From the IMG/VR virus record IMGVR_UViG_3300050161_000195: DNA of 40,731 nucleotides. One strand, 5' to 3'. Shown one piece after another: positions 4,958-40,731 of the stretch (position 1 is its first letter; each line of letters opens with the position of its first letter). Made by a program: the position numbers and the translations under genes. The DNA comes from a virus. The notes under the pieces were generated by a model. It ran no database searches, had not been told where the DNA came from, and was given only the letters and a program-made list of their open reading frames with translations.

Positions 4958-5463
4958 CCGAATATGCGGTGATCTATAATGCCGAAACGGGCGCTCCGAT
5001 CGGCAACTACTCCGGTCTCGAGGGCACTTCGGCGCGGCAGCAAATCCCTGTCGGCGCGGCATATATGCTGGTGCCGTTCGAGGCATGGACATTCCCGCCA
5101 AATCTTGAAGTGATCCGTGCCCACCTCTGCGCCCAGGTCGATGCCCAGGCCGAGGTCAAGCGTGGCCGCAACAGCACCCTCGGCAGTGGGCAGGCCCGGG
5201 CATATCAGCGCAAGGAGGCGGAGGCGCGTGCGTGGGCGGCGGACCATGGGGCCGCTACCCCATATCTTGCCGCAGAGGCGGCGGCGGCGGGGCGGACGGT
5301 TGAGCAGGTTGCGGCTGCCGTCCTGGCTCGGGTGGATGCTGTTGACCTCGCGGATGTGAAGATCGAGGCCCTGCGGGTTGGTGCCAAGCAGCGCATCGCC
5401 GCAGCGGAGAACCTCGCCGCGCTTCAGGCGGCGGCGGCTGTTGCTTGGGGCGCGGACCAATGA
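4954..5463 (+). CDS. Tail fibre assembly / DUF4376-like protein
   Basis: 169 aa directly after the J-like gene. The C-terminal pattern (AYQRKEAEARAW...PYLAAEAAAAGRTVEQVAAAV) resembles phage tail assembly chaperone-like domains. Assignment is from memory only. Confidence 0.45.
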   Translation: MTEYAVIYNAETGAPIGNYSGLEGTSARQQIPVGAAYMLVPFEAWTFPPNLEVIRAHLCAQVDAQAEVKRGRNSTLGSGQARAYQRKEAEARAWAADHGAATPYLAAEAAAAGRTVEQVAAAVLARVDAVDLADVKIEALRVGAKQRIAAAENLAALQAAAAVAWGADQ

Positions 5464-5735
5464 CGCGGCGGTTGGGCGAATCCATTTGGGCCTTGCTCAA
5501 GGCGCTCGACATCCTCGCCTGCACCCTCTGGCTCGCCCCGCTCTATGTCGTCGGGCTGGCGGATCGGCCGAGCGGCCGGCAGATGATCAGCAGCTATGTT
5601 GGCGAGGCGGCGGCCAACGGGATGCTCTGGGGCCGGATCGCCGCGACACTGATCGATATGGGCGCCGTGGCGCTGGGGGATGATCCCGACCACTGCCACC
5701 GCGCCTTCATCCGCTATCGTAATCTCGACCAGTAG
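5460..5735 (+). CDS. Small membrane protein
   Basis: 91 aa from ATG 5460 (overlaps the upstream stop). Hydrophobic segment ILACTLWLAPLYVVGL. Confidence 0.5.
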   Translation: MTRRLGESIWALLKALDILACTLWLAPLYVVGLADRPSGRQMISSYVGEAAANGMLWGRIAATLIDMGAVALGDDPDHCHRAFIRYRNLDQ

Positions 5736-5748
5736 GGGCTTATCACCC

Positions 5749-6084
5749 ATGCCGATTTCTGTAGGCGATGCCACCGGCATCGTCGCTGCTGGCGCGTCTG
5801 TTGCCAGCGTCCTGGGCAGCGCCATCGGCTTCCTGTGGGTGCGGGTGGAACGGTCAAACCGGGCTATCCACGCCGAATTGCGCAAGTGCGAGGAACGCGA
5901 GGTGCGGGGCCGCGAGCGGCGCTCCTGCCTCACCACCGTGATCGAGCTGTTCTGGCAAGAGGTGGCGCGCCTTTCGCCCCAATCCCCCGTGCTCAAGCGG
6001 GCGGAAAAGCTGCTCGATGACATGAAGACCGCCGATGCGATCGCCACCGCCGCCGCCGAAGCGGCGAAGGACGCGAAGCCCTGA
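5749..6084 (+). CDS. N-terminally membrane-anchored protein, holin/antiholin candidate
   Basis: 111 aa from ATG 5749. One TM (IVAAGASVASVLGSAIGFLWV) followed by a charged tail. Lies upstream of the endolysin. Confidence 0.4.
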   Translation: MPISVGDATGIVAAGASVASVLGSAIGFLWVRVERSNRAIHAELRKCEEREVRGRERRSCLTTVIELFWQEVARLSPQSPVLKRAEKLLDDMKTADAIATAAAEAAKDAKP

Positions 6085-6121
6085 CCCGGGCCCGCCCACA
6101 ATTCTGCGAAGGGAACCCAAA

Positions 6122-6295
6122 GTGAAAGACTGGATCAAGGCCCGCCGGGCCGAATTCACCACCAAGATTGGCCTGATCCTGGGCGCGCTCAATGGCGCTA
6201 TCCCGGCGTTCGTCTCGGTCAATCCGAAGCTGACCTATCTTGGTCTTGCCGTGGCTGCGCTGCTAGTCCTTTTCCCGGAGCAGCATGATGCCTGA
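6122..6295 (+). CDS. Two-TM small protein, pinholin candidate (GTG start)
   Basis: 57 aa. TM-like segments KIGLILGALNGAIPAFV and LTYLGLAVAALLVLF. Purine-rich GAAGGGAA lies upstream. The 3' end overlaps the endolysin start. Confidence 0.4.
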   Translation: MKDWIKARRAEFTTKIGLILGALNGAIPAFVSVNPKLTYLGLAVAALLVLFPEQHDA

Positions 6296-6809
6296 ACAGG
6301 CGGCGCGCAACGATCCCCGATTGCGCCTCAAGGGGGCGGCGCTTGCAGCCCTGACTGCCGCCGTGGTGGCCAGCGTGGCACCCATGACGCAGCACTTCGA
6401 AGGGTTCCGGGGCAGGGTTTACCGCGATCCGGTGGGCATCCTGACGCAGTGCTACGGCGAGACTGCCTATGTCCGTCCTGACCTGATCTATTCCAAGGAC
6501 GAATGCGCTGCCAAGCTGCGCGCGCGGATGGCGAAGGACTATGGCCCGCAGATCGTCGCCTGCATCCCCGACCTTGCCAATCCGCTGAACAGGCTCGCGT
6601 ATGCGGCCGCGCTTGATGCCAGCTATAATGCTGGCCCCGGTGGGGTTTGCCGATCATCCTTCGCCAAGGCGTTCAACGCTGGCCGATGGGATCAGGGCTG
6701 CAGGCTCATCGTCGGTTGGCGCGCCACGGCCAAGGGCGTTCCGCTGCCCGGCCTCACCGCTCGCCGCAGGGCTGAGCGCGACTATTGCCTGAGCGGTAAG
6801 CTGCCATGA
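6285..6809 (+). CDS. SAR-type endolysin, GH24 lysozyme (T4/P21 family)
   Basis: E-x8-D-x5-T catalytic triad in HFEGFRGRVYRDPVGILTQCYGET. Weakly hydrophobic Ala/Gly-rich N-terminal segment LKGAALAALTAAVVASVAP. Confidence 0.9.
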   Translation: MMPEQAARNDPRLRLKGAALAALTAAVVASVAPMTQHFEGFRGRVYRDPVGILTQCYGETAYVRPDLIYSKDECAAKLRARMAKDYGPQIVACIPDLANPLNRLAYAAALDASYNAGPGGVCRSSFAKAFNAGRWDQGCRLIVGWRATAKGVPLPGLTARRRAERDYCLSGKLP

Positions 6810-6891
6810 TCGGCCCCCGCATCCTGTGTTTCGGCACCGTCGTGGCGATCGTGGTTCTGGCTGTTGCCGCCCATCTTGGAGGGGCATTCTG

Positions 6892-7287
6892 ATGAACCTG
6901 CCGCCCATCCCATTCCCAGTCCGCGCTGCCCTCTGGCTTCGCGCCCATGCCGCGCCGCTGATCCTCGGCATCATAGCTCTGATCGGCGCCGCGCTGTTCA
7001 TCTCGGCCTTGATCGAAAACTGGACCGGCGCCCCGACCAAGCAGGCCGAGGCGCGCCTCGATGGCAATGTCGCACAGGCTGCGCAGCAGTCCGGGGCCGA
7101 GGCGGTCAACACCGTCCAGACCAATACCATCCGCGAGACTACCATCGAAAGGACCGTCGACCATGCGCAAGCCGCCGTTGCTGCCGCGCCTGATGCTGCC
7201 GCTGCTGATGCTGCCGGCCGTGACGGGCTGTGTGCGATCTCCACCAATCTCTGCCCCGCCGCCAGCATGCAGCGAGCTGATCCCTGA
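6892..7287 (+). CDS. i-spanin (Rz-like)
   Basis: 131 aa from ATG 6892. N-terminal TM LILGIIALIGAALFISALI followed by a helical periplasmic part. Lies directly after the endolysin. Confidence 0.7.
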   Translation: MNLPPIPFPVRAALWLRAHAAPLILGIIALIGAALFISALIENWTGAPTKQAEARLDGNVAQAAQQSGAEAVNTVQTNTIRETTIERTVDHAQAAVAAAPDAAAADAAGRDGLCAISTNLCPAASMQRADP

Positions 7288-9931: not shown

Positions 9932-10106
9932 GCGGAAGCAGCCGATCGAGCTTGTTGGGGCGGGGCGCCGAATCGGCGCCCGCCGCATATATCACGATCT
10001 CACCCGTCGTCGTGATGGTCACCGTGCCCACGGCGATGCCCGCCGCCTGGCACCCTTTGACCGCGCGGGTGACATCGGCCTGATTGAAGGCGGCCCGGCG
10101 CGTCAT
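9918..10106 (-). CDS. Small protein overlapping the int start; candidate excisionase/RDF
   Basis: 62 aa (MTRRAAFNQADVTRAVKGCQAAGIAVGTVTITTTGEIVIY...). The 3' end overlaps the int ATG by 14 nt. The role is inferred from position only. Confidence 0.4.
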   Translation of the reverse strand: MTRRAAFNQADVTRAVKGCQAAGIAVGTVTITTTGEIVIYAAGADSAPRPNKLDRLLPHGQR

Positions 10107-10354
10107 TCCCAGCCCATCCTCTTGACCGGGCCGTTGCCGCGCCGTTCGTTGCACTTGCGGTGGGCGAGCTTGAGATTGTCGAGGGTTGAGCGGCCGCCGA
10201 GCGAGCGGGGCACGATATGATCGAGCGTGGCGAAATCCGGGTTCGCCCGGTTCTTGAACACCATCGGGGCGTGGCACAGGTGGCAATCATCGCCATCCCG
10301 TTCCCGCAGGAGTTTGCGCTTGCTGCACCGCCGACGGACCGCACGGTCGCCCAT
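10103..10354 (-). CDS. HNH endonuclease
   Basis: CHLCH...DHIVPRSLGGRSTLDNLKLAHRKCNERRGN. Confidence 0.85.
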   Translation of the reverse strand: MGDRAVRRRCSKRKLLRERDGDDCHLCHAPMVFKNRANPDFATLDHIVPRSLGGRSTLDNLKLAHRKCNERRGNGPVKRMGWE

Positions 10355-10956
10355 CAGACCGCCGCCTCATACTTGCCGGCCTCATTCCCCCAGGCGGTCC
10401 ACCCCGCGCGCGGGGTGCGGCTGAAGAGTTCGAGGCGGGTGACATCGCCAAACAGCTGCTCGAGCCCTTCGGCGGCCTGTTCCGGCTTGCGGCTGTGTTC
10501 GCGGGGCGGGGCGATGATGAGCTGGCGCACCGAGTGGCTGCAGACGGGCAGGCCCTTGCCCCGCTTGAACAGCCAGCAGGGTTCCACCTGTTTCCGGGTG
10601 TAATAGCCCATCGAGATCCGGGGCTCGGGAATGTCACCCGTGCGCGGATCGATCACCATGGCATCGACCAGGCGCTGCTTGGCCCAATAGAACAGGTCGG
10701 TCACGAAGCTGAAGCCCCAGGCATCGGCCAGCATGAACATCTGATCGAGATGGCTGCCGATACCCCACAGGGCGAGCACGGCATCATCGGCCGCGATCCG
10801 GCGCACCGGAAGGCTGCGCAGTTCATCCAGCGGCATGGTGCGATAGTGATCCGGCCCGCGCCGCTGGGTGGGCGTGCGGGTGGCGCCGTTGAACATCACC
10901 GTCTGCCACGGCGGATCGGCGTAGATCAGCTGGAAGGGACCGCGGGGCAGGGTCAC
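10354..10956 (-). CDS. MT-A70 family DNA N6-adenine methyltransferase
   Basis: IYADPPWQ (DPPW motif) near the N-terminus. 200 aa. Confidence 0.85.
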   Translation of the reverse strand: MTLPRGPFQLIYADPPWQTVMFNGATRTPTQRRGPDHYRTMPLDELRSLPVRRIAADDAVLALWGIGSHLDQMFMLADAWGFSFVTDLFYWAKQRLVDAMVIDPRTGDIPEPRISMGYYTRKQVEPCWLFKRGKGLPVCSHSVRQLIIAPPREHSRKPEQAAEGLEQLFGDVTRLELFSRTPRAGWTAWGNEAGKYEAAV

Positions 10957-11195
10957 TCGGCAATCCCGGCATAGTTGGGCAGGAGCGGTTGGCCCGGAAC
11001 CTTGTCGCCATGACCAAGCGTCCGCAGGGCTTCGGCATAGCGTTCGGCGGCCGCGCGCTGGGCGCGGGCAGTGGTCATGGCCAAGGCAGCCTGCCGCTCA
11101 TGTTCCTGTGCCTCCGCCGTTGCCTTACGGTAGCGATCGAACAGCACGCGCTCGGCCGTGCCCGGGTCAAACGGGTTGACGCGCACCCTGCTCAT
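10953..11195 (-). CDS. Hypothetical protein
   Basis: 80 aa. Start and stop overlap both neighbours. High GC3. Confidence 0.5.
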   Translation of the reverse strand: MSRVRVNPFDPGTAERVLFDRYRKATAEAQEHERQAALAMTTARAQRAAAERYAEALRTLGHGDKVPGQPLLPNYAGIAE

Positions 11196-12628
11196 TCGGT
11201 CGGCGCCCCTTCTTCAGTGTGGGCATCTTCGGCCTCGATCGCGGCCTCGGCCGCGGCTGCGCGGCGCGCCGCTTCGGCGGCGGCTTCTTCGTCGACCAAG
11301 CGTAGGGCTTCTTCGCGGCGGGCTTCCAGCTCGGCCACGGTGGTGCGGATCTGCACGGCGATCAGCACATGGTCATCGCTGGCATCGTCAGTTTCGACGG
11401 CGCACACCCATTCGTCCTGCGGCAAGATAAAATCGAGTGCCTGCCCGCTTTCGATCAGCTGGCGGGCGATCAATTGTCCCGCGCGAAACCCAGCTATCCT
11501 CTGGCGGCGGCGTTCTGCCCAATCCACTTCCTGAGGTGCTGGGAGCGCGTCACCCCCGGCCGGCGCCTCCTTCACCGGGCCGAAGTGGCCGAGGTATTCG
11601 AGCCCTTCGCCAGCGCCATCGATGCGATAGACGGCTACGCAGGGCTTGCGCTGGGCCTTTTTCGTGGCTTCCAGCTGGGGCCTCCAGCCCGTTACCTTCT
11701 CGAACCCATCGGGCGCCTTGGGCCAGTTCGGTGAGTGATCGTACCCGCCGAAGGACAGCAGGCCATCCTTGAACCCGTCCTTCTTGGCCTGCCCGCCCGC
11801 AAGCGTGGCGCCGTATTCCTTGGCCAGCTTTTCGAGCAGGGTCACGTCGATGATCCGTTCCTGGCCGGCATCGCCCATGAACATTTCGGCCTCGACCCGG
11901 CCGCCAGCGGCACGGTAATCATCGAGGCCGACGAAGCGGACCAGCTTGGAATCCAGCGGCAAGGTGCGGCCGCGCATGGCATCGCGGACGGTGGGCGCGT
12001 GGTGGGGCTGCCACTTGGCCTTTTCCTGGGCGGCGAAGACCTTGAGCTGGTGTTCGTGATCGCTGGTGATCGCATAGGCCTTGGCGCTTTCCACGCCGAT
12101 CTTGCCGGTGCGCAGGGCATCCAGCACTTCGGGGGCGAGGGCGGCGAGGCGCAGGCGACCTTCGACATGGGTGCGGGTGACGCCGAAGCGTTTGGCGCAG
12201 GTGGCGATCGGATCGCCCTCGCCCTTCTTCTCGGCCTGGTCGACGATCGCGGCGAAGGCTTCGAATTCGTCGGCCGGGTTCATGGCCACGCGGTGGAGGT
12301 TTTCCGAAAGGCTGGTCTGCCTTGCGGACTCGCGCGGTTCCACCATGACGGGCACGGGCCAATCGTGCTCCAGCCTGCCATCCTCGGCGAGCAGCTGCAG
12401 CGCCTGGAGGCGGCGGCCGCCGGCGACGACCTCGAACTTGTCGCCATAGTTGCTGCCTTCGGGCAGATCGACCGTGGAGAAATGGGCCGGGATGACGACC
12501 AGGTTCTGCTTCAGCCCGCTGGCGGCGATGTCTTCGGCCAGGGTGGCGATATCGGCATCGCGTTCGGTCTGGCGAACATTGAGCGTGGACAGGGCGAGGC
12601 AGTGAAGCGGCAGGGTCTGCATGGACAT
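11192..12628 (-). CDS. ParB-like nuclease/partition domain protein
   Basis: 478 aa from ATG 12628 (GAGGAT RBS; the track ORF extends to 12820). N-terminal LNVRQTERD...IAASGLKQNLVV...FEVVAGGRRLQAL ParB/Srx-type motif. Acidic Ala-rich C-terminus. Confidence 0.75.
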   Translation of the reverse strand: MSMQTLPLHCLALSTLNVRQTERDADIATLAEDIAASGLKQNLVVIPAHFSTVDLPEGSNYGDKFEVVAGGRRLQALQLLAEDGRLEHDWPVPVMVEPRESARQTSLSENLHRVAMNPADEFEAFAAIVDQAEKKGEGDPIATCAKRFGVTRTHVEGRLRLAALAPEVLDALRTGKIGVESAKAYAITSDHEHQLKVFAAQEKAKWQPHHAPTVRDAMRGRTLPLDSKLVRFVGLDDYRAAGGRVEAEMFMGDAGQERIIDVTLLEKLAKEYGATLAGGQAKKDGFKDGLLSFGGYDHSPNWPKAPDGFEKVTGWRPQLEATKKAQRKPCVAVYRIDGAGEGLEYLGHFGPVKEAPAGGDALPAPQEVDWAERRRQRIAGFRAGQLIARQLIESGQALDFILPQDEWVCAVETDDASDDHVLIAVQIRTTVAELEARREEALRLVDEEAAAEAARRAAAAEAAIEAEDAHTEEGAPTE

Positions 12629-12671
12629 GGTGGCGATCCTCAAATCGTGAAGGGGGCGGGGCGCAGCGCGA

Positions 12672-13696
12672 TCAGGCCTTGAGCTTGCAGTGGGAATCGC
12701 GGCAGGCGTTGACCTCGGCATGGGTGCACATGCGGTCGCACTGGTCGCAGAAGGCCTTGCCGCTGCGGGCGAGCGCGGCGATCGCCGCGGGGGAAGCCGC
12801 CCGGGCCGGGGCGCTGGCAAGGGGGGGCGTGGTTACGACCGGCGCTGCCCGGGATGAAGGCGGGAGAGCAGCGCCGGTCGCGCCAACCTTGCCGCGCGCC
12901 TGGTCAATGATGACGCGGGCGAGGGCGGCAGGGCCGGAAAGGACGGGGTAGCGTTCGCGGAAGATCTTGCCCCGCAGGATCCAGCCATCGGGATCGGCCT
13001 TGGCCAGGCTGGCGATGATGGCGGCGGCGCTGTCCTGCTCTTCCAGCAGGTTGACGAACAGGAAGCCCAGCGCATTGAGCAGGGTGGCGGCCTGTCGGAC
13101 CGGCTGATCCGGGTAGGCGGCGCGCAGGGTGGTGAGGCCGAAGCGGACAGCGTCGGCGCTCTTTTCGCGCAGCTGGCGGACCAGCATGGGCGCGCACTGC
13201 AGTTCACCCGGGCCGTAGGAGGCGACATTGGAATGGCGGCGGATGGTCCACCCCGTTTCCGCGATCATGTCCTGCACCAGCTTGGCATCGGCTTCGCCAG
13301 CGGCGAGCATGCCGAAGAAGATATCGGCCTGGCTGAGCCGCTGGCGCTGTTCGTTGAGGGCGACGAAGGTCTTGGCCTCTTCGCTGATGGCGATGCCGCC
13401 CAGGATCACGCAGGGCAGGTGCGGGATATCGCCCCGCGCGGCGGCGCCGGCGTGGCGGCCTGTCCATCGAGGATGAACAGGCCGCCATCGGCCCGGCGGC
13501 TGACCACCAAGGGCTGGCACAGGGTCCAGTCCCAGCCCTTGACCATGGCGGCGATGATCTTGCGCGAGGCCGGGCTATCGGTGGCGCGTTGATAGGCGCG
13601 ATCGACCGAAAGGCGATCGACGGAGCACCATTCCAGCGAGGGCGGATTGCCCTGTTGCGGTGGAAGTTGCGTTTCCTTTGCGGGGGTCTTGGCCAT
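12672..13696 (-). pseudogene. ParB N-terminal-like (DGQHR-type, DUF6551-like) gene split by a frameshift near 13452-13465
   Basis: Frame A (13696..13406) ends ...GGLFILDGQ then out-of-family sequence and a stop. Frame B (13520..12672) continues with GRHAGAAARGDIPHLPCVILGGIAISEEAKTFVALNEQRQRLSQADIF. Together they read as one ParB-like domain. Cys-rich C-terminus CDQCDRMCTHAEVNACRDSHC. Confidence 0.6.
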
Positions 13697-13770
13697 GGTT
13701 CAGTCCTTGGCGGCGCGGCGAGGTTCGATCGCGGCGAGGGTGGCAAAACAGGCGATGAGGAGCAGCGCGG

Positions 13771-14244
13771 TCACGCCGCCAGCCGATCGAATTCGGCATG
13801 GACGGGGGCGAGGGCCAGCAGGGTATCGGCGTGGCACCATTCGCTGGTGAGCGGGCACCAACAGGCAAGATCATGCCCGGCCAGCTGGTGCAGCCTGGTC
13901 ATCACCCGTTCGTGCAGGCGGTGGAGGCCATCGATCTCGGCCGGGTGAAAGCCCATCCGCTCAAGGGTGAGATCGCCGACCCTGCCGGCCAGCCATTCCT
14001 TATGAAGGATGACCGAGCGGGCGTGGTTCACGCCCCGGCCCTGGAAGGGATTGCCCCAGATCGTGGGGCGGCCGACATAGATTGTGCCTTCGGGCAGGAC
14101 ACTGCCCTTGCGGCGGGGCCGCTGGATGCGCTGGGCGCGCGGAACAGGGCCAAGGGTTGAACGCGGGGGCAAAGCCCCCGGCGTTCCGAGATGGCCCAAA
14201 GTGTACTCACACACTGGCCATCTCCACTGCGGCAAGTTCAACAT
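13771..14244 (-). CDS. DUF4326 domain protein
   Basis: GRPTIWGNPF and LACWCPLTSEWCHADTLLALA motifs. The true start is probably internal (GTG overlapping the upstream stop at about 14211), because 14207..14244 overlaps the preceding gene. Confidence 0.8.
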   Translation of the reverse strand: MLNLPQWRWPVCEYTLGHLGTPGALPPRSTLGPVPRAQRIQRPRRKGSVLPEGTIYVGRPTIWGNPFQGRGVNHARSVILHKEWLAGRVGDLTLERMGFHPAEIDGLHRLHERVMTRLHQLAGHDLACWCPLTSEWCHADTLLALAPVHAEFDRLAA

Positions 14245-15298
14245 CGATCAGCTGGAACAGCGTTTCGGCGAAGGCTTTCCAAGCCGCCGCCGCTTCCGCC
14301 GCCCAAGCCGCCGCTTCCGCCGCCCAAGCCGCCGCTTCCGCCGCCGCTTCCGCCGCCCAAGCCGCCGCTTCCGCCGCCCAAGCCGCCGCTTCCGCCGCCG
14401 CTTCCGCCGCCGCTTCCGCCGCCCAAGCCGCCGCTTCCGCCGCCCTAGCCGCCGCTTCCGCCGCCGCTTCCGCCGCCGCTTCCGCCGCCCAAGCCGCCGC
14501 TTCCGCCGCCCTAGCCGCCGCCCTAGCCGCCGCTTCCGCCGCCCTAGCCGCCGCTTCCGCCGCCGCTTCCGCCGCCCAAGCCGCCGCTTCCGCCGCCCTA
14601 GCCGCCGCCCTAGCCGCCGCTTCCGCCGCCCTAGCCGCCGCCTTTGCCTCCTCCAGGCCCGTCCCGGTCTGGAGCGCGGTGCACACCTGATCGCAGGCCG
14701 CCACCACGCCGGGCCAGTATTCCGGCGGATTGTCCTGGTGAACCGCGCTGGCGGCGCTGATGGCCTGCCTAACGCCCGCGATCAGCAGGCCGGTCTGGAT
14801 GCGATCCCAGGCGGCATCGTCCAGGGCGTGCCAGCGGGCGGCGCGGTCGATCAGTTCGCCGCTGAACCACAGCACCTGGTCCTTGGCGATACCGTCATCG
14901 ATCGCGGGGACCAGCGATGCCATCCATGGGGGCATGAGGTCCGCCGGGCAATCGCCCGACCCGTTGATATCCGGCCCGAAGGCGGCGAGGGCGCAGACCA
15001 GTTCGCGGCCCTGTTCATCCTGGGTGCGCCAGGTGTTCTGGGTGATCGTGCCGGCGGCATGATACCCGCGGGCGAGAGCGATGCGATCGGCGATGGTGAG
15101 GGTAGGCGCAGTGGTCGTGTCAGCCATGATCGGCTCCTGTTGGGGGCTGGTTGAGAAGGGGAGGTATTTGCGCCACCAGGGCAGCCGCTTGCGGGCGCGC
15201 CATTCGGCCATCGGCAGCGGCTTTTCCGCCGGGGGCGGCATGGCCGAGCCGGTGTTGAGCGACCGGGCGTGCTGCGCGACGGTGTAGGCGCGGGCCAT
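14207..15298 (-). CDS. Hypothetical protein with C-terminal (E/R/W)-polyalanine repeat region
   Basis: 363 aa if started at ATG 15298, which overlaps the upstream TGA; GC3 stays high from there. An alternative ATG at 15127 has a perfect AGGAG RBS. The track ORF runs to 15640. Confidence 0.65.
   Translation of the reverse strand: MARAYTVAQHARSLNTGSAMPPPAEKPLPMAEWRARKRLPWWRKYLPFSTSPQQEPIMADTTTAPTLTIADRIALARGYHAAGTITQNTWRTQDEQGRELVCALAAFGPDINGSGDCPADLMPPWMASLVPAIDDGIAKDQVLWFSGELIDRAARWHALDDAAWDRIQTGLLIAGVRQAISAASAVHQDNPPEYWPGVVAACDQVCTALQTGTGLEEAKAAARAAEAAARAAARAAEAAAWAAEAAAEAAARAAEAAARAAARAAEAAAWAAEAAAEAAAEAAARAAEAAAWAAEAAAEAAAEAAAWAAEAAAWAAEAAAEAAAWAAEAAAWAAEAAAAWKAFAETLFQLIDVELAAVEMASV
14281..14650. 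repeat. Nested in-frame tandem repeat (12-nt and 9-nt modules; 87-nt higher-order duplication at 14463-14549 / 14550-14636)
   Basis: The array is built only from GCCGCTTCCGCC, GCCCAAGCC, GCCCTAGCC and GCC. Confidence 0.95.
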
Positions 15299-15432
15299 CA
15301 CTCGCAGTGGACCTTGGCGCATTCGTATTTGAACACGGCGTGGTCGATCTGGGTGAGGATGGGCCAGCCCACGATCTGCACGGCGGCGATGATCAGGACG
15401 GCGAGCACGATATCGCGCGGGGAGAGCGCCAT
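15298..15432 (-). CDS. Small membrane protein (44 aa)
   Basis: MALSPRDIVLAVLIIAAVQIVGWPILTQ... AAGGAGG RBS. The ATG overlaps the upstream TAA (TAATG) and its stop overlaps the next ATG. Confidence 0.5.
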   Translation of the reverse strand: MALSPRDIVLAVLIIAAVQIVGWPILTQIDHAVFKYECAKVHCE

Positions 15433-15911
15433 TACGCGGCCTCCTTTTCGGTGCAGGGCACGGTGATCGCCGGGGGCGGGACATCGTGGCGGCCATTGGG
15501 ATCGAAGCGCAGGTGGCGGGCGAGATCGGCGAGGGCGACGGCGGCCGCGCATTGCTCCGGCGTTTCGAGCGGGCCGTGCAGGGCATCGTCGCGCGCCTTG
15601 GCCAGCACCGGGGCCCAGAGGCGGCGGGGGCAGATTTCATCGGCCAGCAGCCCGCGCGCCTCGGCCTCAGTCACGTCCTTGCGGGCATCATTGGGCCAGA
15701 TCTGGACCACGCGGCGGCCGCAGAGGCCATCTTCCAGCTCGGGCAGATCGGCGCCGACCAGGCAGGCGATGGCCAGCCACGGGCGCAGGTGATCGGTGGC
15801 GCGGCGGGCATCCATGAGCCCGCTGCGGACCAGTTCGCGCGCCTTGGCCTGCCGCTGGCGGAATGCCTGGGCGGCGGCGCGGGAGATATCGGGTTCGATG
15901 GTAGGGGACAT
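15432..15911 (-). CDS. Hypothetical protein, first gene of the leftward operon
   Basis: 159 aa. GGAGG RBS. Located just downstream of the putative leftward promoter. Confidence 0.6.
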   Translation of the reverse strand: MSPTIEPDISRAAAQAFRQRQAKARELVRSGLMDARRATDHLRPWLAIACLVGADLPELEDGLCGRRVVQIWPNDARKDVTEAEARGLLADEICPRRLWAPVLAKARDDALHGPLETPEQCAAAVALADLARHLRFDPNGRHDVPPPAITVPCTEKEAA

Positions 15912-15942
15912 GGGTGCCTCCGTCTGTGACGGGGCAGCTTAT

Positions 15943-15992
15943 GGTGTGACAATGCACACCATGTCAATCTAAAAAGTGTGGTATATCACACT
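15943..15992 (-). promoter_or_regulatory. Leftward early promoter with operators O1 (15943-15960) and O2 (15975-15992)
   Basis: GGTGTG-ACAATG-CACACC and AGTGTG-GTATAT-CACACT palindromes, centres 32 bp apart. A minus-strand TTGACA (-35, plus coordinates 15962-15967) lies 1 nt upstream of O1. Confidence 0.6.
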
Positions 15993-16713
15993 ATCCGAAG
16001 AAGCGCTTCCATAGGGAAGGTTTGGGCTGGCGGATCGGTGCGACGAGAGTCGGTCTGATCCGGGCGGCCCCTTCAAGCCTTTCGATCAACTCGGCATCGG
16101 TGAGGATCGGCGCGTTGTATTTGGCCAGAAGTTCGCGGCTGGATCGGCAGAATTCGGCATGCAGTGTGGCGAGGGCCTCTACGGGCATTGCCCGGGTGAC
16201 TTTGCAGGACGGGCAATCAATGGCGCTGTCCGAGGTGATGCCGCCCAGCGGGAGGTTGTATATGGCCCCGCATTCGCAGGTGATCGGGATTATCATCGCC
16301 GAAATTATCATGGCCAGATGATCGGGAGCGGCGGCTTTGGTTGGCGCCGAAGTTGCGGGGGCCGTGAGGGTGGTTCTTTGCGATGGACCAGACCGGCCGT
16401 ATGTCCGGTGGGGGAGATCATCATCCGTAAGGGTCACGTCGAGTACGACGCCAAGGGCGCCGCCGGGGGCGCGGGCGATGTCCTTAATGGTGGCGGTGAC
16501 GCCCCGGCCTTGATCGAATATGGCATCGCGAAGCCAAGATGATCTTGCAATATAGCCGATGGTTTTGCCGCAGGCATTTTCTACGCGCAGCGCTTGGCTG
16601 TCGTAAGGGTTGCCTTCTTCGAAGCATATCCAAGCCCGTTCACCTGGTGATGTGCGACTTATTTCGGTCTGGTAGTTCGTTTCTCCGACTATCCCGACCG
16701 AATATAATTTCAT
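15991..16713 (-). CDS. HIRAN domain protein with C-terminal zinc-ribbon-like CxC...CxxC
   Basis: 240 aa from ATG 16713, which overlaps the repressor stop (ATGA). VGETNYQ...EEGNPYDSQALRV...GKTIGYIARS is the HIRAN signature. ITCECG...CPSCK follows. GC is lower than the surroundings. Confidence 0.8.
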   Translation of the reverse strand: MKLYSVGIVGETNYQTEISRTSPGERAWICFEEGNPYDSQALRVENACGKTIGYIARSSWLRDAIFDQGRGVTATIKDIARAPGGALGVVLDVTLTDDDLPHRTYGRSGPSQRTTLTAPATSAPTKAAAPDHLAMIISAMIIPITCECGAIYNLPLGGITSDSAIDCPSCKVTRAMPVEALATLHAEFCRSSRELLAKYNAPILTDAELIERLEGAARIRPTLVAPIRQPKPSLWKRFFG

Positions 16714-17318
16714 GATGTGCGTCTCGGCTTTTGTCGCACCCATCGGACTGGGGCGGCCCAGGCTACTTCCTGGTCTTCCATATCGGGCGCATTGAGTGAA
16801 CGAAGGGTGTAGCGGCCCGGCATGGTGCCGCGCGCAAATATCTTGAGGAACGTTCCGCCTTCGAGTGTGCGAACGGCGCAATATTCGCCGATTGCATCAG
16901 GGCTGATGCCATCGACCGTGCGATCGACGTAGACGATATCGCCATCCTCGTACTTCGGAAGCATGGAATTCCCGACGACCTGGAGCGCCATAATCTTGCC
17001 GTGCGCACCGGGCGGACGCGGGGCAAAATCATCGCTTTCATGATCGTCGCCGTTGAACAGCACTTCGCCACCCGCGCCGATGCGCCCCGATAGTTTCAAC
17101 TGTGGTTCGCTGATCAGATCATCAATGGTGATATCGAACACCTCGGCCAGGCGTACCAAGGTGCCCACGCGCACGTCGGATCGTTTGGCTTCAAAGATGT
17201 CGCGAATCGCCGTCTCGCCCAGCCCGGCCTTTTTGGCTAGCGGCTTACGCTTGATGTTGTGTTCATCCATCAGGCTTTGCAGCCGCGCCTTGAAGGCCTC
17301 GATGTCGAACTCTGTCAT
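16710..17318 (-). CDS. cI: CI/LexA-type repressor (XRE HTH + S24 peptidase)
   Basis: 202 aa from ATG 17318 (MTEFD...). HTH is KKAGLGETAIRDIFEAKR. S24 Ser is in VVGNSMLP and Lys in TFLKIF. Candidate Ala-Gly cleavage site in RIGAGGE. Confidence 0.9.
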   Translation of the reverse strand: MTEFDIEAFKARLQSLMDEHNIKRKPLAKKAGLGETAIRDIFEAKRSDVRVGTLVRLAEVFDITIDDLISEPQLKLSGRIGAGGEVLFNGDDHESDDFAPRPPGAHGKIMALQVVGNSMLPKYEDGDIVYVDRTVDGISPDAIGEYCAVRTLEGGTFLKIFARGTMPGRYTLRSLNAPDMEDQEVAWAAPVRWVRQKPRRTS

Positions 17319-17395
17319 GTGTGACATTTCACACATTTTTTGCCCTCGCCGACAGTCAGGACGTTTCACACCTTGACGGTGTGCAATATCACACC
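17318..17395. promoter_or_regulatory. Divergent immunity region with operators O3 (17318-17335) and O4 (17378-17395) and the rightward promoter
   Basis: TGTGTG-ACATTT-CACACA and GGTGTG-CAATAT-CACACC. A plus-strand TTGACG (-35, 17373-17378) abuts O4. A degenerate half-site TCACACC lies at 17365-17371. O3 covers the repressor start codons. Confidence 0.65.
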
Positions 17396-17409
17396 TTATG
17401 AGGGCGGGC

Positions 17410-17610
17410 ATGGCACTGCTCGATGACATTGAAGCTTTCCTGGAAGCGAACGCAGATGTGAGCCCGACCGCGCTTGGCGATCGCGCCTTGGGTGACCGCC
17501 ACTTTGTGCGCCAATTGCGCGGCGGTCGCCGGGTATGGCCGGAAACAGAGGCCAAGGTTCGGCAATTCATGGCCGAGCATTGCTCCACCGCAGACCAGGC
17601 GGAGGCCTGA
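17410..17610 (+). CDS. Small early regulator (Cro/CII position)
   Basis: 66 aa from ATG 17410 (GAGGG RBS; alternative ATG at 17398). It is divergent from the repressor. Function is assigned from position only. Confidence 0.55.
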   Translation: MALLDDIEAFLEANADVSPTALGDRALGDRHFVRQLRGGRRVWPETEAKVRQFMAEHCSTADQAEA

Positions 17611-17743
17611 GCGATGGGGGGGCAGGTATATCTGAATGGCGATAGCCGGATCGGGGCGGCGGCGCTGGCTGGCGCGGTTCGATCCTTTGAATTTGCACAG
17701 CCCCACGGGTTCAAGGCGCACTCCCGGCGCCTCCGTCTGGGGC

Positions 17744-17790
17744 GCGGGGCTGGCCTTTTTTGCCCCAAGGCCAGCCCCGCCTCTGTTTTG
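17744..17790 (+). terminator. Intrinsic terminator-like hairpin after the first rightward gene
   Basis: 12-bp GC stem (17744-17755 / 17769-17780), 13-nt loop, then CTCTGTTTTG. Confidence 0.55.
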
Positions 17791-36772: not shown

Positions 36773-36803
36773 CGCAAGACTGACCTTTTGAAGGAGACAC
36801 GAC

Positions 36804-37238
36804 ATGGCCAAGAAGCTGGCAAAGGATTACCTGCTCTGGGTCGAAAGCGCGACCCCGGGTACCTACAATCTGGTCAAGGGCCAACAGACCCTGTCGCTGC
36901 AGGAATCGTCCAGCTCGGTCGATACGACCACGAAGGACGATTATCCCTGGTCGACCAGCGCGCCCGGCTCGCGCAGCGTCACCATCGATTTCTCCTGCGT
37001 GCCCGATCTGCCCGATTCCACCGGCTATACCCGGCTCGAAACCATCGCCGCCGCCACTACCCCGCAGGTCAACATCCAGATCCGCAAGGGCGGCGCCTCT
37101 GCCACCGGTACCGATGCCGTCTTCGCCGGGCTGATGAACGTGGTGTCGAAGAACACCACGGCCGACAACAACAACCCGATCGCGTCGAAGTGGCAGCTCT
37201 CCAACGCCGCCGCGCCGACCACGAACGCCTTGGCCTGA
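36804..37238 (+). CDS. Major tail protein (TP901-1 / GTA g9 type)
   Basis: 144 aa. GAAGGAGA RBS. Size, position and sequence type (MAKKLAKDYLLWVESATPGTYNLVKGQQTLSL). Confidence 0.8.
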   Translation: MAKKLAKDYLLWVESATPGTYNLVKGQQTLSLQESSSSVDTTTKDDYPWSTSAPGSRSVTIDFSCVPDLPDSTGYTRLETIAAATTPQVNIQIRKGGASATGTDAVFAGLMNVVSKNTTADNNNPIASKWQLSNAAAPTTNALA

Positions 37239-37289
37239 CCGGTTGCGGCGCCGGCCGCAGGCCGGTGAAGCAGAGATGAAAGGAAGCAC

Positions 37290-37568
37290 ATGAAGATCGG
37301 GACCAGAACCTTCGCCGTGGCCGATCGGCCCGGCGATCTCGACGCGCAACTGGTGGCATCCACCGGCTGCAACGCGGCCGAGATCGCCGGGATGCTGGCC
37401 GAAGGCGCAATCGCCGGGCTGGTGGCCAATGCGCTGCTGCCCTTCCTCGCCGAACAGGATCGGCCCGCCGTGCCCGAACTGGCCGCGCTGATCGCCGGGG
37501 AAGACCTCGCCGGCGTAACCCGGCAGGTCGCCGCGCTTTATGCCGCCCCGGCCGGAGGTGAAGCATGA
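37290..37568 (+). CDS. Hypothetical protein (tail assembly region)
   Basis: 92-aa ORF between the major tail and chaperone genes. Confidence 0.5.
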   Translation: MKIGTRTFAVADRPGDLDAQLVASTGCNAAEIAGMLAEGAIAGLVANALLPFLAEQDRPAVPELAALIAGEDLAGVTRQVAALYAAPAGGEA

Positions 37569-37990
37569 GCGAGGTGACCCGCCCGGCCAACGCCGAACGC
37601 GGCGAAATCGTCCTGAAGCTGGAAGGGGAAGACTATGTCCTCCGCCCCAGCCACGAAGCGATCATGGCCTTCGAGGAGCTGACCGGGCGCGGCCTTTACG
37701 AGCTGGCCACCGATGCCATCAACCGCAAGCTCCGCCTGACCGAAACCGCCCAGATCGCCACCGAATGCATCCGTGCCTGGGGCCGGGCCACCGGCACGGC
37801 CTCGATGCAGCAGGTCAATGCCCGGCGCGTGGGCGAACTGATGCTTGAAGGCGAAGGTGGGTTCAAGGCGGCGGTGGAAGCCGTTGGCGCCATGCTCGCG
37901 CTCGCCTGCACCGGCGGGTACACCGCCCAGGGGGAGCAGAAGGCGGCGGCGACGATGACGGAGACGAAGGCGACGCCCGCCGCCGCCTAG
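37565..37990 (+). CDS. Tail assembly chaperone (GTA g10-like, gpG equivalent)
   Basis: 141 aa. GEIVLKLEGEDYVLRPSHEAIMAFEELTGRGL resembles gene-transfer-agent family chaperones. Confidence 0.7.
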   Translation: MSEVTRPANAERGEIVLKLEGEDYVLRPSHEAIMAFEELTGRGLYELATDAINRKLRLTETAQIATECIRAWGRATGTASMQQVNARRVGELMLEGEGGFKAAVEAVGAMLALACTGGYTAQGEQKAAATMTETKATPAAA

Positions 37991-38109
37991 CCGGCCTCGC
38001 CGCCGCTGCCCTGGGCTGGCGCGCCGATCATTTCTGGCATGCCACCCCGCATGAATTCTGGACCGCGATCGAAGGGTGGAAGCGGTTCAATCAACCCGGC
38101 GAGGATTGA
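37565..38109 (+). CDS. Probable -1 frameshift extension product of the tail chaperone (gpGT equivalent)
   Basis: The -1 frame is open at 37849-38109 with no ATG/GTG/TTG. It encodes ...LAGLAAAALGWRADHFWHATPHEFWTAIEGWKRFNQPGED, which resembles the DUF2376/rcc01693 family as I recall it. The G-run CAGGGGGAG at 37928-37936 is a possible slip site. Confidence 0.5.
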
Positions 38110-38151
38110 CCAATCTGCGCTATCGTGTGGCGGCGAATCGAGGGGGGCAAC

Positions 38152-38391
38152 ATGAAGCGGTTGGTTGTGGTGCTCGCAGTGCTGCTGGTTGGTTGTTCGG
38201 CAAAGGCGCGCTGGAGCGAACATGTTTATGAAAACGTGAGCGAAGCTGGCACGTCGGTCGATATGTGCCGCGTTGCCAGAGAAACCCGCCAGCTTTGGGC
38301 CGAAGTCGGCGATAGCCACAAAGAGACTGAATGGGCTGCGACTGCAGCGATGGACTGTCTCAGGGCTTCGATGCAGCATCCCGGTCAGTAA
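38152..38391 (+). CDS. Small lipoprotein (moron)
   Basis: 79 aa. GAGGGGGG RBS. Signal peptide plus lipobox MKRLVVVLAVLLVG|C. Lower local GC. Confidence 0.7.
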   Translation: MKRLVVVLAVLLVGCSAKARWSEHVYENVSEAGTSVDMCRVARETRQLWAEVGDSHKETEWAATAAMDCLRASMQHPGQ

Positions 38392-38572
38392 GACTTCGCT
38401 GAACCAGCCTGCGGATAGCCTCAGGCCGCGAGAGCGGCTCGGGTTGTTCGGCGATCCATGCGTCGAGGTCAGCCAAAGCGTCCGAATGGAGCCTTACCTG
38501 AATTGGAACGCCTTGCCCGGTTGGCTGCGGCCCACGCCGTTTCCTTGGTTGCAAAGTTTCTTGACCTGACAT
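38360..38572 (-). CDS. Ribbon-helix-helix (CopG/Arc-type) DNA-binding protein, antisense to the late operon
   Basis: 70 aa from ATG 38572 (the track ORF extends to 38857). VPIQVRLHSDALADLDAWIAEQ...SRPEAIRRLVQRSL fits a strand-helix-helix pattern. Confidence 0.65.
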   Translation of the reverse strand: MSGQETLQPRKRRGPQPTGQGVPIQVRLHSDALADLDAWIAEQPEPLSRPEAIRRLVQRSLTDRDAASKP

Positions 38573-38603
38573 AGAAATCTCGGTACCAAAGAAGCAGGCC
38601 GAA

Positions 38604-38621
38604 CGGAAGCTGTAACTTCCG
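38604..38621. promoter_or_regulatory. Palindrome CGGAAG-CTGTAA-CTTCCG in the divergent intergenic region (candidate RHH operator)
   Basis: Perfect 6-bp arms, located between the RHH gene start (38572) and the plus-strand gene at 38641/38653. Confidence 0.4.
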
Positions 38622-38652
38622 CCCGGCCCTGACCTGAACCATGGAGAACGCC

Positions 38653-39099
38653 ATGACCCAAGCTGTCCCCGGCAATAGTGCCGATGCGCCCATCCCGGCA
38701 ACGGGAATTTCTGTCGATCTTTCCCGCCGCGCCATGCTCGGCGGCGCCGCTCTCGCCGGGGTGCTGCTCGCCACGCCGGCTCTGGCCTTGCCCAGCGCAG
38801 ACCCCGACGCCCGGTTCTGGCCTCTTCATGCCCGGTGGCAACATTTGGAAGAGGCATGGGACGGGGATGATGGGCTTGCCGGCGGTGATGATGATGCCGT
38901 ATGGGATGCCGCCGCAGCCGAAGTCAGCGCGGCGTTCGATGCCATGATGCTGGCGCCGATCTCCACCGTGGCCGCCGTCCTTGCCAAGTTCAAGGCCTGC
39001 GCCGGGCAGGAAATCCTGCTCGATGATCGCAGCCTTACCACTCTCGATGCGATCGAACGTGATCTTGCCCGCCTTGCCGCTGCGGAGGGCCGGGCATGA
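38653..39099 (+). CDS. Tat-signal exported protein of unknown function
   Basis: Twin-arginine signal SRRAMLGGAALAGVLLATPALALP. GGAG lies 6 nt upstream of ATG 38653 (alternative ATG at 38641). Confidence 0.65.
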   Translation: MTQAVPGNSADAPIPATGISVDLSRRAMLGGAALAGVLLATPALALPSADPDARFWPLHARWQHLEEAWDGDDGLAGGDDDAVWDAAAAEVSAAFDAMMLAPISTVAAVLAKFKACAGQEILLDDRSLTTLDAIERDLARLAAAEGRA

Positions 39100-39509
39100 A
39101 CGCGCTGGCCACGGGGTGGGAACGCTTGCCGGAGGGAGAGCTCACCGCGCCGGCCGATTTCGAATGGGTCTATGCCTTCGGCAACGAGGGCGGCTTCCGC
39201 ATCGGCGCATCATCGTGCCCGGCCCGCGCCATGGCGGATCTGTACGGGCCAGTCGGCCGGCAGGATCGCTCCGCATGGTATATCCGGGGTTGGTACGAAG
39301 GGCACCGGGCGAAACAGGGCATTGCCGCCCATTTCGAACGGCGGCTGCAGGTCGGCGAATGGTTCATCGTGCCGATCAGCGAACTGTTGCAGGTAGACGT
39401 GCGCCGGCTCTGCGCCCGGCACCAGATCATGGGCGAAGGTACGCCCGAATATGCTGCCGAACTGGCCTTCCGGGCGGATCAGGCCCGTCACGCTACCGCC
39501 CTGACCTGA
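39096..39509 (+). CDS. T5orf172 / GIY-YIG-like domain protein
   Basis: 137 aa. WVYAFGNEGGFRIGASSCPARAMADL ... HFERRLQVGEWFIVPISEL matches the G..KIG.S..P..R...L ... EWF pattern. The ATG overlaps the upstream stop (ATGA). Confidence 0.6.
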   Translation: MNALATGWERLPEGELTAPADFEWVYAFGNEGGFRIGASSCPARAMADLYGPVGRQDRSAWYIRGWYEGHRAKQGIAAHFERRLQVGEWFIVPISELLQVDVRRLCARHQIMGEGTPEYAAELAFRADQARHATALT

Positions 39510-39600
39510 CCTGCCGCCTGACCTGACCTGATCGAACGAACCGAACCTCAATCCAGCCCCCGGTGCCTCGCGCCGGGGGCCAGAACCCGTTGGAGCAACC

Positions 39601-40731
39601 ATGGTCGATACCGATGTCAAAACCCTGATGCTCCAGGTCGATGCCTCGATCGAACTGCTGCGCAAGGAACTCGACGGCGGCGCCGGCGTGATGGACCGGT
39701 TTAGCGCCCGGGCCGGCACGATGGCCGATCAGGTGGAACGCGCGATCTCCACCATGGGCAAGAACTTCCCCAACCTCAGCCAGCGCGCCGCCGATGCCGC
39801 CAGCCAGATGGAAAAGGCCTTCAATGACAGCTTCGGCGCGATCCAGCGCATGGCTGATAAGGCGATCACCATGCCCGCGGTGAACGGCGGCGGGCTGGAC
39901 GTGGGCGCCACCGAAATGCGTGCGGCGGCCGATGCCGCCCGCACGCGGGCCGCCGCGCTGGAACAGATCGAGGTGGCTGCCCAGCGCGCGGCGGCGGGCG
40001 AAGGCGTGATGACTGCGGAAACCCGCGCCTATCTTCAGGCCGCACAGGCCGCCCGGATTGAGGCTGAAGCCCACGCCCGCGATCTAATGCGTGAAGCAGG
40101 CGCGCTCGAACGGATCGAAATCGAACTGGGCAAGGCCGGCGCCGCGCAGCAGCTTATGGCTACCCGCGGCGCAGCGCTTCATCAGCAAACCGGCCTGCAG
40201 CGTGCCGGGATGCAGCAGTTGGCGTTCCAGATTTCTGACGTATCGACCCAGTTTTCCATGGGCACGCCGCCCATGCAGATCTTCGCGCAGCAGTCCTCGC
40301 AGGTCATCCAGGCAGTGGGGATGATGACCACGGAGAGCAAGGGGCTGCTCGGCATCCTTGGGAACCCGTGGACGCAAATCGTTGTCGCCGCGACAGTCGT
40401 ACTTGAACCGTTCATCGCCAAGCTATTCGACTCGCAGGATGCTCTGACCGGCATAGGAGACAAGGCTGAACAAGCGATGGAGCGCGTGCGGCGATCGTTG
40501 GCTCAGGTCTCCGCCATTACCGACGCCGCCGATGAAGCTACGAGGAAGAAGGTAGAGGCGATGGCTGAGGTAGCGCGCCTCAACCGCCAGATCACCCAAG
40601 CTCAGGGTCAACGCGATTCCTTTATTGAAGCAAACGGGTCTGAGGATGCAGGTGGTCTCAACTTCAACATCACTCGGCTCATGGCCCAGCGCGATGCCGC
40701 GCAAGAGGCGATTAAGCAGGCGGACAATTCT
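39601..40731 (+). CDS. Tail tape measure protein, 5' portion (continues at nt 128 of the window via the circular junction)
   Basis: ATG 39601 with a GGAG RBS. Open to the window end. GMQQLAFQISDVSTQFSMGTPPMQIFAQQSSQVIQAVG is a typical TMP core segment. The ORF is absent from the track only because it has no stop inside the window. Confidence 0.85.
   Translation, partial: MVDTDVKTLMLQVDASIELLRKELDGGAGVMDRFSARAGTMADQVERAISTMGKNFPNLSQRAADAASQMEKAFNDSFGAIQRMADKAITMPAVNGGGLDVGATEMRAAADAARTRAAALEQIEVAAQRAAAGEGVMTAETRAYLQAAQAARIEAEAHARDLMREAGALERIEIELGKAGAAQQLMATRGAALHQQTGLQRAGMQQLAFQISDVSTQFSMGTPPMQIFAQQSSQVIQAVGMMTTESKGLLGILGNPWTQIVVAATVVLEPFIAKLFDSQDALTGIGDKAEQAMERVRRSLAQVSAITDAADEATRKKVEAMAEVARLNRQITQAQGQRDSFIEANGSEDAGGLNFNITRLMAQRDAAQEAIKQADNS
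40605..40731. repeat. Terminal overlap, exact copy of 1..127
   Basis: See the first feature. Confidence 0.95.

Follow-up and report, generated by a model that had tools for sequence, protein, structure and literature searches.

Four genes inserted between the genes for the tail assembly chaperone and for the tape measure protein

The DNA analysed here is a viral sequence of 40,731 nucleotides (nt) from IMG/VR record IMGVR_UViG_3300050161_000195, hereafter called the window. It carries a 1491-nt cassette at positions 38110–39600, between the stop codon of the T extension of the tail assembly chaperone and the start codon of the tape measure protein gene (TMP). Because its ends bear an exact 127-nt terminal repeat (1–127 and 40605–40731), the window assembly is circular and represents a complete, circularly permuted genome of ~40.6 kb. 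The phage is a temperate siphophage whose head is of the HK97 type, and its host is probably an alphaproteobacterium given that relatives lie in Sphingomonas, Sphingobium and Acetobacteraceae genomes. Four open reading frames (ORFs) occupy the cassette: a predicted lipoprotein gene (slot 1, 38152–38391, + strand), a putative ribbon-helix-helix (RHH) gene of repressor type (38572–38360, − strand), a gene for a protein with a twin-arginine (Tat) signal (slot 2, 38653–39099, + strand), and a gene assigned to a minimal T5orf172 protein of the GIY-YIG superfamily (slot 3, 39096–39509, + strand). A first-pass annotation of the window had listed the same four ORFs at 38110–39600, between the chaperone genes and TMP, with the RHH gene converging on slot 1 and overlapping it by 32 nt, and all of these positions were recovered here. 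Its identifications of the lipobox, RHH, twin-arginine and T5orf172 features likewise hold, the last of them by transitive homology only.

The left boundary of the cassette can be placed exactly. The chaperone G gene (37565–37990, + strand), which forms the left backbone flank, matches Pfam Phage_TAC_11 (31.3 bits against a cutoff of 27.8, E = 2.2e-07), and its product is 45–57% identical to the chaperones of the 26 other lineages described below. The T extension (37849–38109, + strand) lies in the −1 frame, which is open from 37849; past the G stop this frame encodes '...LGWRADHFWHATPHEFWTAIEGWKRFNQPGED*' and ends at 38109. The T peptide (LGWRADHFWHATPHEFW... / LGWRADHFWHATPHEFWTAIEGW...) is conserved in all relatives. 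With the T stop at 38107–38109, the chaperone unit ends at 38109 and the cassette starts at 38110.

Using the chaperone protein, relatives were gathered from collections of viruses, genomes and metagenomes. In each of them the T peptide and the start of TMP were located, and clustering at 95% nucleotide identity yielded 27 lineages (individual loci carry numbers with the prefix L). The end of T and the start of TMP are separated by 3–58 nt in 21 of the 27 lineages and by inserts of 277–2720 nt in the other six. This spacing in lineages free of the island identifies 38110–39600 as an insertion between otherwise adjacent genes, in agreement with the first-pass annotation. The inserts of other lineages include a reverse-strand small membrane protein (L013/L014), a reverse-strand, low-GC 82-amino-acid (aa) exported protein (L024), and a 174-aa lipoprotein in a Sphingobium metagenome-assembled genome (L018), while the window, L032 and L066 carry multi-gene islands. 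Cargo at this junction usually encodes envelope proteins; the envelope cargo of related cassettes falls into PHROGs of unknown function or into no PHROG. These sequence comparisons support the classification of 38110–39600 as an accessory, moron-type cassette.

Base composition also deviates at this locus. The segment 38110–38640, which had been noted earlier for its lower GC, has a GC content of 58.9% versus a genome mean of 65.5%, placing it in the lowest 3.4% of 500-nt windows, and the right half of the cassette is only slightly lower than the mean. Third-position GC is 0.55–0.78 in the ORFs of the cassette versus 0.76–0.87 in the neighbouring structural genes. The same phage sequence is present in several JGI and Logan assemblies, and the cassette is 100% identical across at least seven independently assembled contigs. 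These independent assemblies break at differing points, and that of L118 breaks inside the cassette. A coding test based on variation among contigs gave nothing usable, as the copies are all 100% identical. A DNA similarity search of 36800–40731 against 50,697 phage records returned a single weak match, in the chaperone region.

Slot 1 encodes a protein of 79 aa that starts MKRLVVVLAVLLVGC, with a strong ribosome-binding site (GAGGGGGG) 6 nt upstream. Its L-V-G-C lipobox (MKRLVVVLAVLLVG/C) conforms to the pattern [LVI][ASTVI][GAS]C, from which lipidation is predicted; the mature protein would comprise 65 aa with a pI of 5.5 and two further Cys residues. Slot 1 has no family match in Pfam, PHROG or NCBIfam, and no tblastn match in the 50,697 phage records. 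One weak relative was found in the exported protein of L024 (5033–5281, − strand, GC 0.51), which occupies the same junction and aligns over the full length (E = 3e-5). The two proteins share a 30-residue Cys-Cys spacing, and the lipobox of the L024 protein is non-canonical.

The RHH gene encodes 70 aa and matches phrog_4738, annotated as 'transcriptional repressor' (E = 4.5e-05). Its score against Pfam RHH_1 is 13.5 bits, below the cutoff of 20.5. In tblastn, annotated RHH proteins of mycobacteriophages match it with 51% identity over 41 aa. Public gene calls on the identical contigs lack this gene, and the candidate explanation that the ORF is spurious was considered and rejected given homologs in at least six cassettes: proteins with 39–70% identity are encoded in the same position in L015, L032, L066, L069, L070 and L120. 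PDB sequence searches with all four proteins of the cassette gave nothing meaningful, and scans of the window proteins with PADLOC and NCBIfam gave no matches.

Slot 2 has a GGAG before its start codon and encodes 148 aa, or 152 aa from an alternative start at 38641. Its N-terminus contains the features of a twin-arginine signal (SRRAMLGG, a 23-residue uncharged stretch, and ALA/LP), and export is predicted on this basis. The sole homolog identified, P0003, came from a word-index search, is 39% identical and retains the Tat motif. The mature part is acidic and is predicted by AlphaFold as four helices with low confidence (pLDDT 55.7); this model has no Foldseek match. No hidden Markov model (HMM) match was obtained in Pfam or NCBIfam, no homologs emerged from scans of viral, genome and metagenome collections or from tblastn against phages and plasmids, and a two-sequence profile added none. 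An iterative local HMM search weakly links slot 2 of the window with slot 2 of L072 and L032, possibly through the signal peptide, and an hhalign comparison with slot 2 of L066 was negative.

Slot 3 encodes 137 aa, and its start overlaps the slot 2 stop as ATGA. Its match to Pfam T5orf172 (14.7 bits, E = 0.044) does not pass the threshold of 20 bits. Among 1.84 billion representative proteins, an exhaustive HMMER search recovered two homologs only, P0004 and P0005 (E = 5e-6 and 3e-4), both of which pass the Pfam MUG113 and T5orf172 cutoffs; a word-index homolog search found nothing. Slot 3 is therefore placed in the GIY-YIG clan by transitive homology together with the motifs it retains (VYA, RIG, Arg44 and GEWF), the Glu of the 'LE..LH' helix being replaced. 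The AlphaFold model (pLDDT 65.9) has a beta-beta-alpha-beta-alpha order that fits the core, and Foldseek gave no significant match to it. The protein extends only ~35 residues beyond the T5orf172 core and has no recognisable DNA-binding domain or zinc finger, and the two homologs (206–216 aa) are 70–80 aa longer. The 3' end of the gene runs into a CCTGA repeat tract.

Recurrence of the cassette layout

The cassette has a four-part layout, in which an RHH gene lies antisense to the late operon, a gene for an exported protein converges on it, and a small ORF diverges from it and is followed by a gene for a DNA-binding protein or nuclease. This layout recurs in about 50 viral contigs. The RHH proteins of the window and of the L032, L066 and L015 loci are mutually homologous (39–62% identity), and a profile of these four proteins retrieved 48 further viral loci. 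To the left of RHH, an exported-protein, lipoprotein or membrane-protein ORF ends no more than ~40 nt from the RHH 3' end at eight or more loci. To the right, twin-arginine N-termini occur at 5–8 of the 48 loci versus 10 of 520 background ORFs, which makes them about ten times commoner there. In the slot after the small ORF, genes with Pfam assignments include Phage_pRha (6), Bro-N (5), P22_AR_N (4), ANT/KilAC (3), KilA-N (1) and HNH (1). For the first long ORF downstream, an identity as TMP is confirmed at six or more loci, with TMP families prevailing in this set.

At several individual loci, the layout occupies this junction or adjoins TMP. In L032, a secreted 137-aa protein gene (+) is overlapped by 35 nt by RHH (−), and these are followed by a gene for a 112-aa twin-arginine protein (+), a Rha+KilAC antirepressor gene (+) and TMP. 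The L066 cassette consists of RHH (−), a 99-aa ORF (+) and a NUMOD4-HNH nuclease gene (+) that overlaps the preceding ORF by 4 nt, again ahead of TMP. In L015–L017, whose tail module is otherwise unrelated to that of the window, a divergent RHH gene is followed by the only homolog of slot 2 of the window, by a Rha-family gene overlapping it by 4 nt, and by a TMP-like gene. L120 encodes a tail tube protein and a chaperone-like 143-aa protein, the end of whose gene is overlapped by RHH on the opposite strand (48% identical to the RHH protein of the window), and then the conserved leader hairpin (see below), an 82-aa ORF and a T5orf172 gene. In L119, a T5orf172 gene is followed by a hairpin and ribosome-binding site near-identical to positions 39556–39596 of the window, and by TMP. 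Both homologs of slot 3 thus share its context (L119 and L120), one of them in a complete RHH cassette (L120), and on this basis the T5orf172 clade of slot 3 appears to be specific to the cassette.

Two further observations concern related cassettes. A secreted family of ~137 aa converges on RHH in L032 (5089–5502), L079 (786–1205, −), L080 (5152–5655, −) and L110 (5131–5541, −); its members have a signal peptide, the motif 'AADQFDLxC' and a C-terminal 'GFPxxKF', and no PHROG match. L069, the closest RHH relative (70% identity), has an AT-rich cluster (5231–7150) with three membrane or secreted genes on the RHH strand, an arrangement closer to the P22 order mnt-orf59a-sieA, and its cassette adjoins terminase genes, not TMP.

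The first-pass annotation had proposed that the RHH gene marks a unit regulated apart from the late operon, and this proposal fits the comparative data, both through the antirepressor-type neighbours and through the conserved region between RHH and slot 2 (see below). It had also regarded the combination as an undescribed module. That view stands only in part, since the junction is the site of HK97 gene 15, the layout is present in dozens of contigs, and it parallels the sieA-mnt-arc-ant region of P22. The cassette family is common among phages from metagenomes, and in the literature searched, no description was found of its twin-arginine small proteins or of its T5orf172 clade.

Regulatory elements, repeats and flanking genes

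The intergenic region between RHH and slot 2 has 76% column identity across the window, L069 and L070, whose RHH proteins are 70% and 62% identical to that of the window. Directly 5' of the RHH start, at 38596–38629, lies a terminator-like hairpin of 15 pairs with a U-rich run on the RHH-sense (−) strand. Four cassettes share this hairpin, and of its 13 conserved pairs, 3 show compensatory change. It includes several G-U pairs, which become A-C if read on the other strand, and its consensus energy is −23.7 kcal/mol on the − strand versus −15.8 on the + strand. The G-U pairs, the U-run and the strand energies favour an RNA element that is read leftward. Such an element could be the leader of the RHH message or, more speculatively and by analogy with sar of P22, the terminator of an antisense RNA over the slot 2 start. 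A role as a + strand terminator for the lipoprotein gene was considered and rejected, given the A-C mismatches and the lack of a T run on that strand.

A promoter-like sequence, TTGCAA-N17-TAGAAA (38549–38577, + strand), faces slot 2 and overlaps with the start codon of RHH. In the alignment, by eye, counterparts can be seen in L069 (TTGCAT-17-TAGAAA) and L070 (TTGCAG-17-TATATT). We only infer a promoter here, from a motif that was seen by eye and that lies in coding sequence.

At the other end of the cassette, a GC-rich hairpin (GCCCCCGG-N9-CCGGGGGC, 39556–39580, + strand) lies just before the TMP ribosome-binding site. A near-identical hairpin follows the T5orf172 gene of L119, and comparable hairpins precede TMP in L018, L032, L037 and L022. 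These pre-TMP hairpins suggest programmed attenuation between chaperone and TMP. They occur even in two relatives that lack cargo, namely L037 (~1770–1830), with a clear stem and T run, and L022 (~5050–5095).

CCTGA pentamer repeats (39493–39530; direct-repeat families D1, D2 and D7) lie at the slot 3 3' end and echo GCCCTGACCTG at 38626–38636, so that they bracket the slot 2/slot 3 pair. The cassette also contains five of the six CCTGACCTG sites in the genome, and the motif GCCCT(A/G)ACC is present as well in the RHH-slot 2 intergenic region of L069, L070 and L066. The CCTGA repeats may be binding sites for the RHH protein or a recombination scar.

Upstream of the chaperone lie the major tail protein gene (36804–37238; Phage_tail_2) and a gene for a 92-aa protein (37290–37568) with no match in Pfam, PHROG or NCBIfam, which relatives keep at the corresponding location (95 aa in L012, 98 aa in L018 and 92 aa in L019). 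Within the G/T overlap, the sole slippery-looking run is CAG GGG GAG (37927–37936; G GGG GAG at 37930–37936), which falls inside the conserved chaperone motif GGYTA(Q/E)GE. The GGGGG run is also present in L012, and G GGG GAG could be the −1 frameshift site. On the right flank, TMP (+ strand) starts with the ATG at 39601, runs to 40731 and continues from 128 to 1177, encoding 726 aa across the circular junction with its 127-nt terminal overlap, as public gene calls agree. It matches Pfam TMP_2 above the cutoff.

Elsewhere in the genome, a CI/LexA-like repressor gene (16710–17768, − strand) encodes a helix-turn-helix and an S24 peptidase domain with 'GNSM', and is associated with a low-GC tract (15851–17700). 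A small gene at 17398–17610 is divergent from it. This locus is the primary immunity region of the phage. For the early region (~10000–15700, −), public calls on L118 list a 478-aa ParB-like protein, an MT-A70 methyltransferase, a small HNH protein and a DUF4326 protein, and these calls also place a D12-class methyltransferase gene next to the integrase gene.

Interpretation and relation to known systems

We consider it probable that the cassette is one member of a widespread, RHH-gated accessory design, resembling P22 immI in being a self-regulated unit within a late operon. Two known systems bear on this reading. The first is HK97 gene 15, the first element to be named a moron, which lies between the chaperone gene and TMP and whose product is an exclusion protein of the inner membrane (Juhala et al. 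2000; Cumby et al. 2012; PMC3594210). As in HK97, DNA of deviating GC content and with an envelope-targeted product is inserted exactly between chaperone and TMP in the tail operon of a temperate siphophage. However, HK97 has one small inner-membrane gene at this site, whereas the window has four genes, among them an antisense regulator and a divergently read operon of two genes. Sequence similarity between the two was not detected, and exclusion by the cassette is a prediction from analogy.

The second is the immI/sieA region of P22, which is situated within the late operon, is for the most part not expressed from it, and varies greatly among relatives (PMC8022706). In P22 (NC_002371), gene 16 is followed by sieA, orf59a and mnt on the opposite strand, by overlapping divergent promoters, by arc, sar and ant, by a terminator, and by gene 9. 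The cassette would likewise be a variable, self-regulated region of the late operon, with an antisense RHH gene and a divergent promoter region that leads into a small gene and then an effector gene. It also has an envelope gene beside the RHH gene and a terminator-like hairpin before the next tail gene, and four related cassettes carry true P22-Ant-type (P22_AR_N) genes. In contrast with P22, the window has its envelope gene in convergent orientation to the RHH gene and not behind it, its small gene specifies a twin-arginine protein and not Arc, and its effector is a T5orf172 protein and not Ant. The window phage is, moreover, a siphophage with its insertion at the chaperone-TMP junction, and its RHH protein is not detectably homologous to Mnt or Arc.

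From the insertion, the gene identities, the recurring architecture and the conserved intergenic region, we infer how the cassette might be expressed and what it might do. It is most likely an RHH-gated accessory unit with an envelope arm, serving exclusion or conversion, and a DNA-directed arm. In a lysogen, the RHH protein would be made and would shut off the divergent slot 2/slot 3 promoter via the conserved intergenic region, with the conserved hairpin on the RHH-sense strand acting at the RNA level as a leader or terminator. The lipoprotein may serve as a lysogenic-conversion or exclusion factor. When repression lapses, the slot 2/slot 3 pair would be expressed, and the T5orf172 protein could then act on DNA, either as a nuclease directed against the DNA of related phages or as a regulator in the place of an antirepressor.

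Several points weigh against this account. The parallel with P22 is one of architecture only, as hhalign detected no homology of the RHH family to Mnt or to Arc of P22 (probability below 1% in each case). A CI-like repressor of the self-cleaving type is already present in the phage, so a second immunity circuit is not required. A consensus promoter scan found no promoter in the cassette. Pfam scans of the ~50 other cassettes brought up no T5orf172 gene, and slot 3 of the window is no antirepressor. Slot 2 proteins mostly lack demonstrable homology to one another, and some cassettes adjoin terminase or portal genes instead of TMP. Finally, ORFs at the surveyed RHH loci were called crudely, so the counts are approximate.

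Other explanations assign the central role to different genes of the cassette. One possible, if tentative, account is superinfection exclusion at the envelope, in which the lipoprotein, and perhaps the Tat protein, block a receptor or DNA entry in the manner of Llp, Cor or HK97 gp15, with RHH and T5orf172 being incidental. As regards the lipoprotein, this account overlaps with the RHH-gated unit favoured above. The canonical lipobox and the twin-arginine signal argue for it, as does the mostly envelope-targeted cargo at the junction in relatives (the lipoprotein of L018, the membrane protein of L014, the exported protein of L024 and the secreted protein of L032). So does the precedent set at this junction by HK97 gp15, which mediates exclusion from the inner membrane and whose effect is contingent on the incoming phage's tail region (PMC3594210). 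The first-pass annotation had drawn a likeness to Llp of T5 and Cor, and slot 1 does resemble Llp and the Cor proteins of phi80, N15 and HK022 as a small lipoprotein precursor of ~78 aa by the tail genes with a mature Cys. However, this likeness does not extend to homology: the sole match to a Cor PHROG covers signal peptide residues 1–18 (E = 0.026), and the searches of phage records by tblastn and of PDB sequences described above found no match. The slot 2 signal is also missing in many cassettes, so that export is not a constant feature. Transfer by homing, in which a free-standing T5orf172 endonuclease cuts the cassette-free junction and drags its neighbours along as cargo, is unlikely. 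The T5orf172 subfamily of GIY-YIG proteins has among its members phage homing endonucleases that cluster near essential structural genes, and related domains have been domesticated as repressors (PMC10448857). Slot 3 resembles these endonucleases and their domesticated relatives (ICP1 phages, PLE CapR, Odn; PMC10448857) in its core, as judged by transitive homology, and in its location beside an essential structural gene. Homing would also fit the position of both slot 3 homologs next to TMP or chaperone, the HNH-NUMOD4 nuclease in the same slot of L066, the presence/absence polymorphism at the junction, and the short direct repeats that flank slots 2 and 3. Yet such endonucleases nearly always carry an additional, separate DNA-binding domain (PMC10448857), whereas slot 3 has none that is recognisable in its ~35 residues beyond the core, is far shorter than its own homologs, has lost one conserved Glu of the helix motif, scores below the Pfam threshold, and lies downstream of a regulator instead of standing free. 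The short slot 3 argues against an autonomous homing endonuclease, although the protein may still have nuclease activity. In most cassettes this slot is filled by antirepressors that are not nucleases, the element that stays constant is the RHH gene, and the flanking repeat is only marginally above chance (about 0.1 by rough estimate). The earlier suggestion that the GIY-YIG gene was the mobile driver of the insertion is weakened by the same observations.

A toxin-antitoxin or abortive infection system, with RHH as antitoxin and autoregulator and the T5orf172 nuclease as toxin, perhaps together with slot 2, is highly improbable. RHH proteins are common antitoxins, and the T5orf172 homologs weakly match the candidate defence model PDC-S57 (E ~5e-4), but the RHH gene is divergent from the other genes and is not co-transcribed with them, PADLOC matched no window protein, and antirepressors hold the effector slot in other cassettes. 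Least probable of all is a decaying remnant, in which the ORFs would be functionless relics of past recombination. The shortened slot 3 that ends in a repeat tract and the low third-position GC of the RHH and lipoprotein ORFs could be read in this way, and Phage L has, where P22 carries immI, a degraded remnant resembling mnt (PMC8022706). However, all four ORFs are intact, three have good ribosome-binding sites, slots 2 and 3 keep their ATGA overlap, the sequence is 100% identical across at least seven independently assembled contigs, and diverged phages have kept both the architecture and the intergenic hairpin.

It is very unlikely, but conceivable, that an undescribed, envelope-coupled switch underlies the repeated combination, behind an RHH gate, of a small twin-arginine protein and a co-translated effector that binds DNA (antirepressor, HNH or T5orf172). 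Slot 2 would restrain the effector until Tat export, or until failure of Tat or of the proton-motive force, and the leftward hairpin would exert sar-like antisense control on slot 2 translation. If true, envelope status or superinfection would be tied to prophage derepression or to attack on incoming DNA. The literature searched contains no coupling of twin-arginine signals with morons or exclusion.

For the RHH-gated accessory unit that we favour, the comparisons carry several implications. The archetypal moron site is a cargo hotspot also in a distinct phage group whose relatives lie in genomes of alphaproteobacteria, and its cargo often takes the form of a putatively self-regulated unit on the lines of P22 immI instead of a lone gene. 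These units bundle envelope proteins that are candidates for exclusion. They also offer uncharacterised families for study, including the RHH family, the twin-arginine small proteins, the cassette-specific T5orf172 clade, and the secreted 'AADQFDLxC...GFPxxKF' family. If the RHH gate works as proposed, secondary immunity or anti-immunity regions within late operons would be far commoner and more varied than P22 alone suggests.

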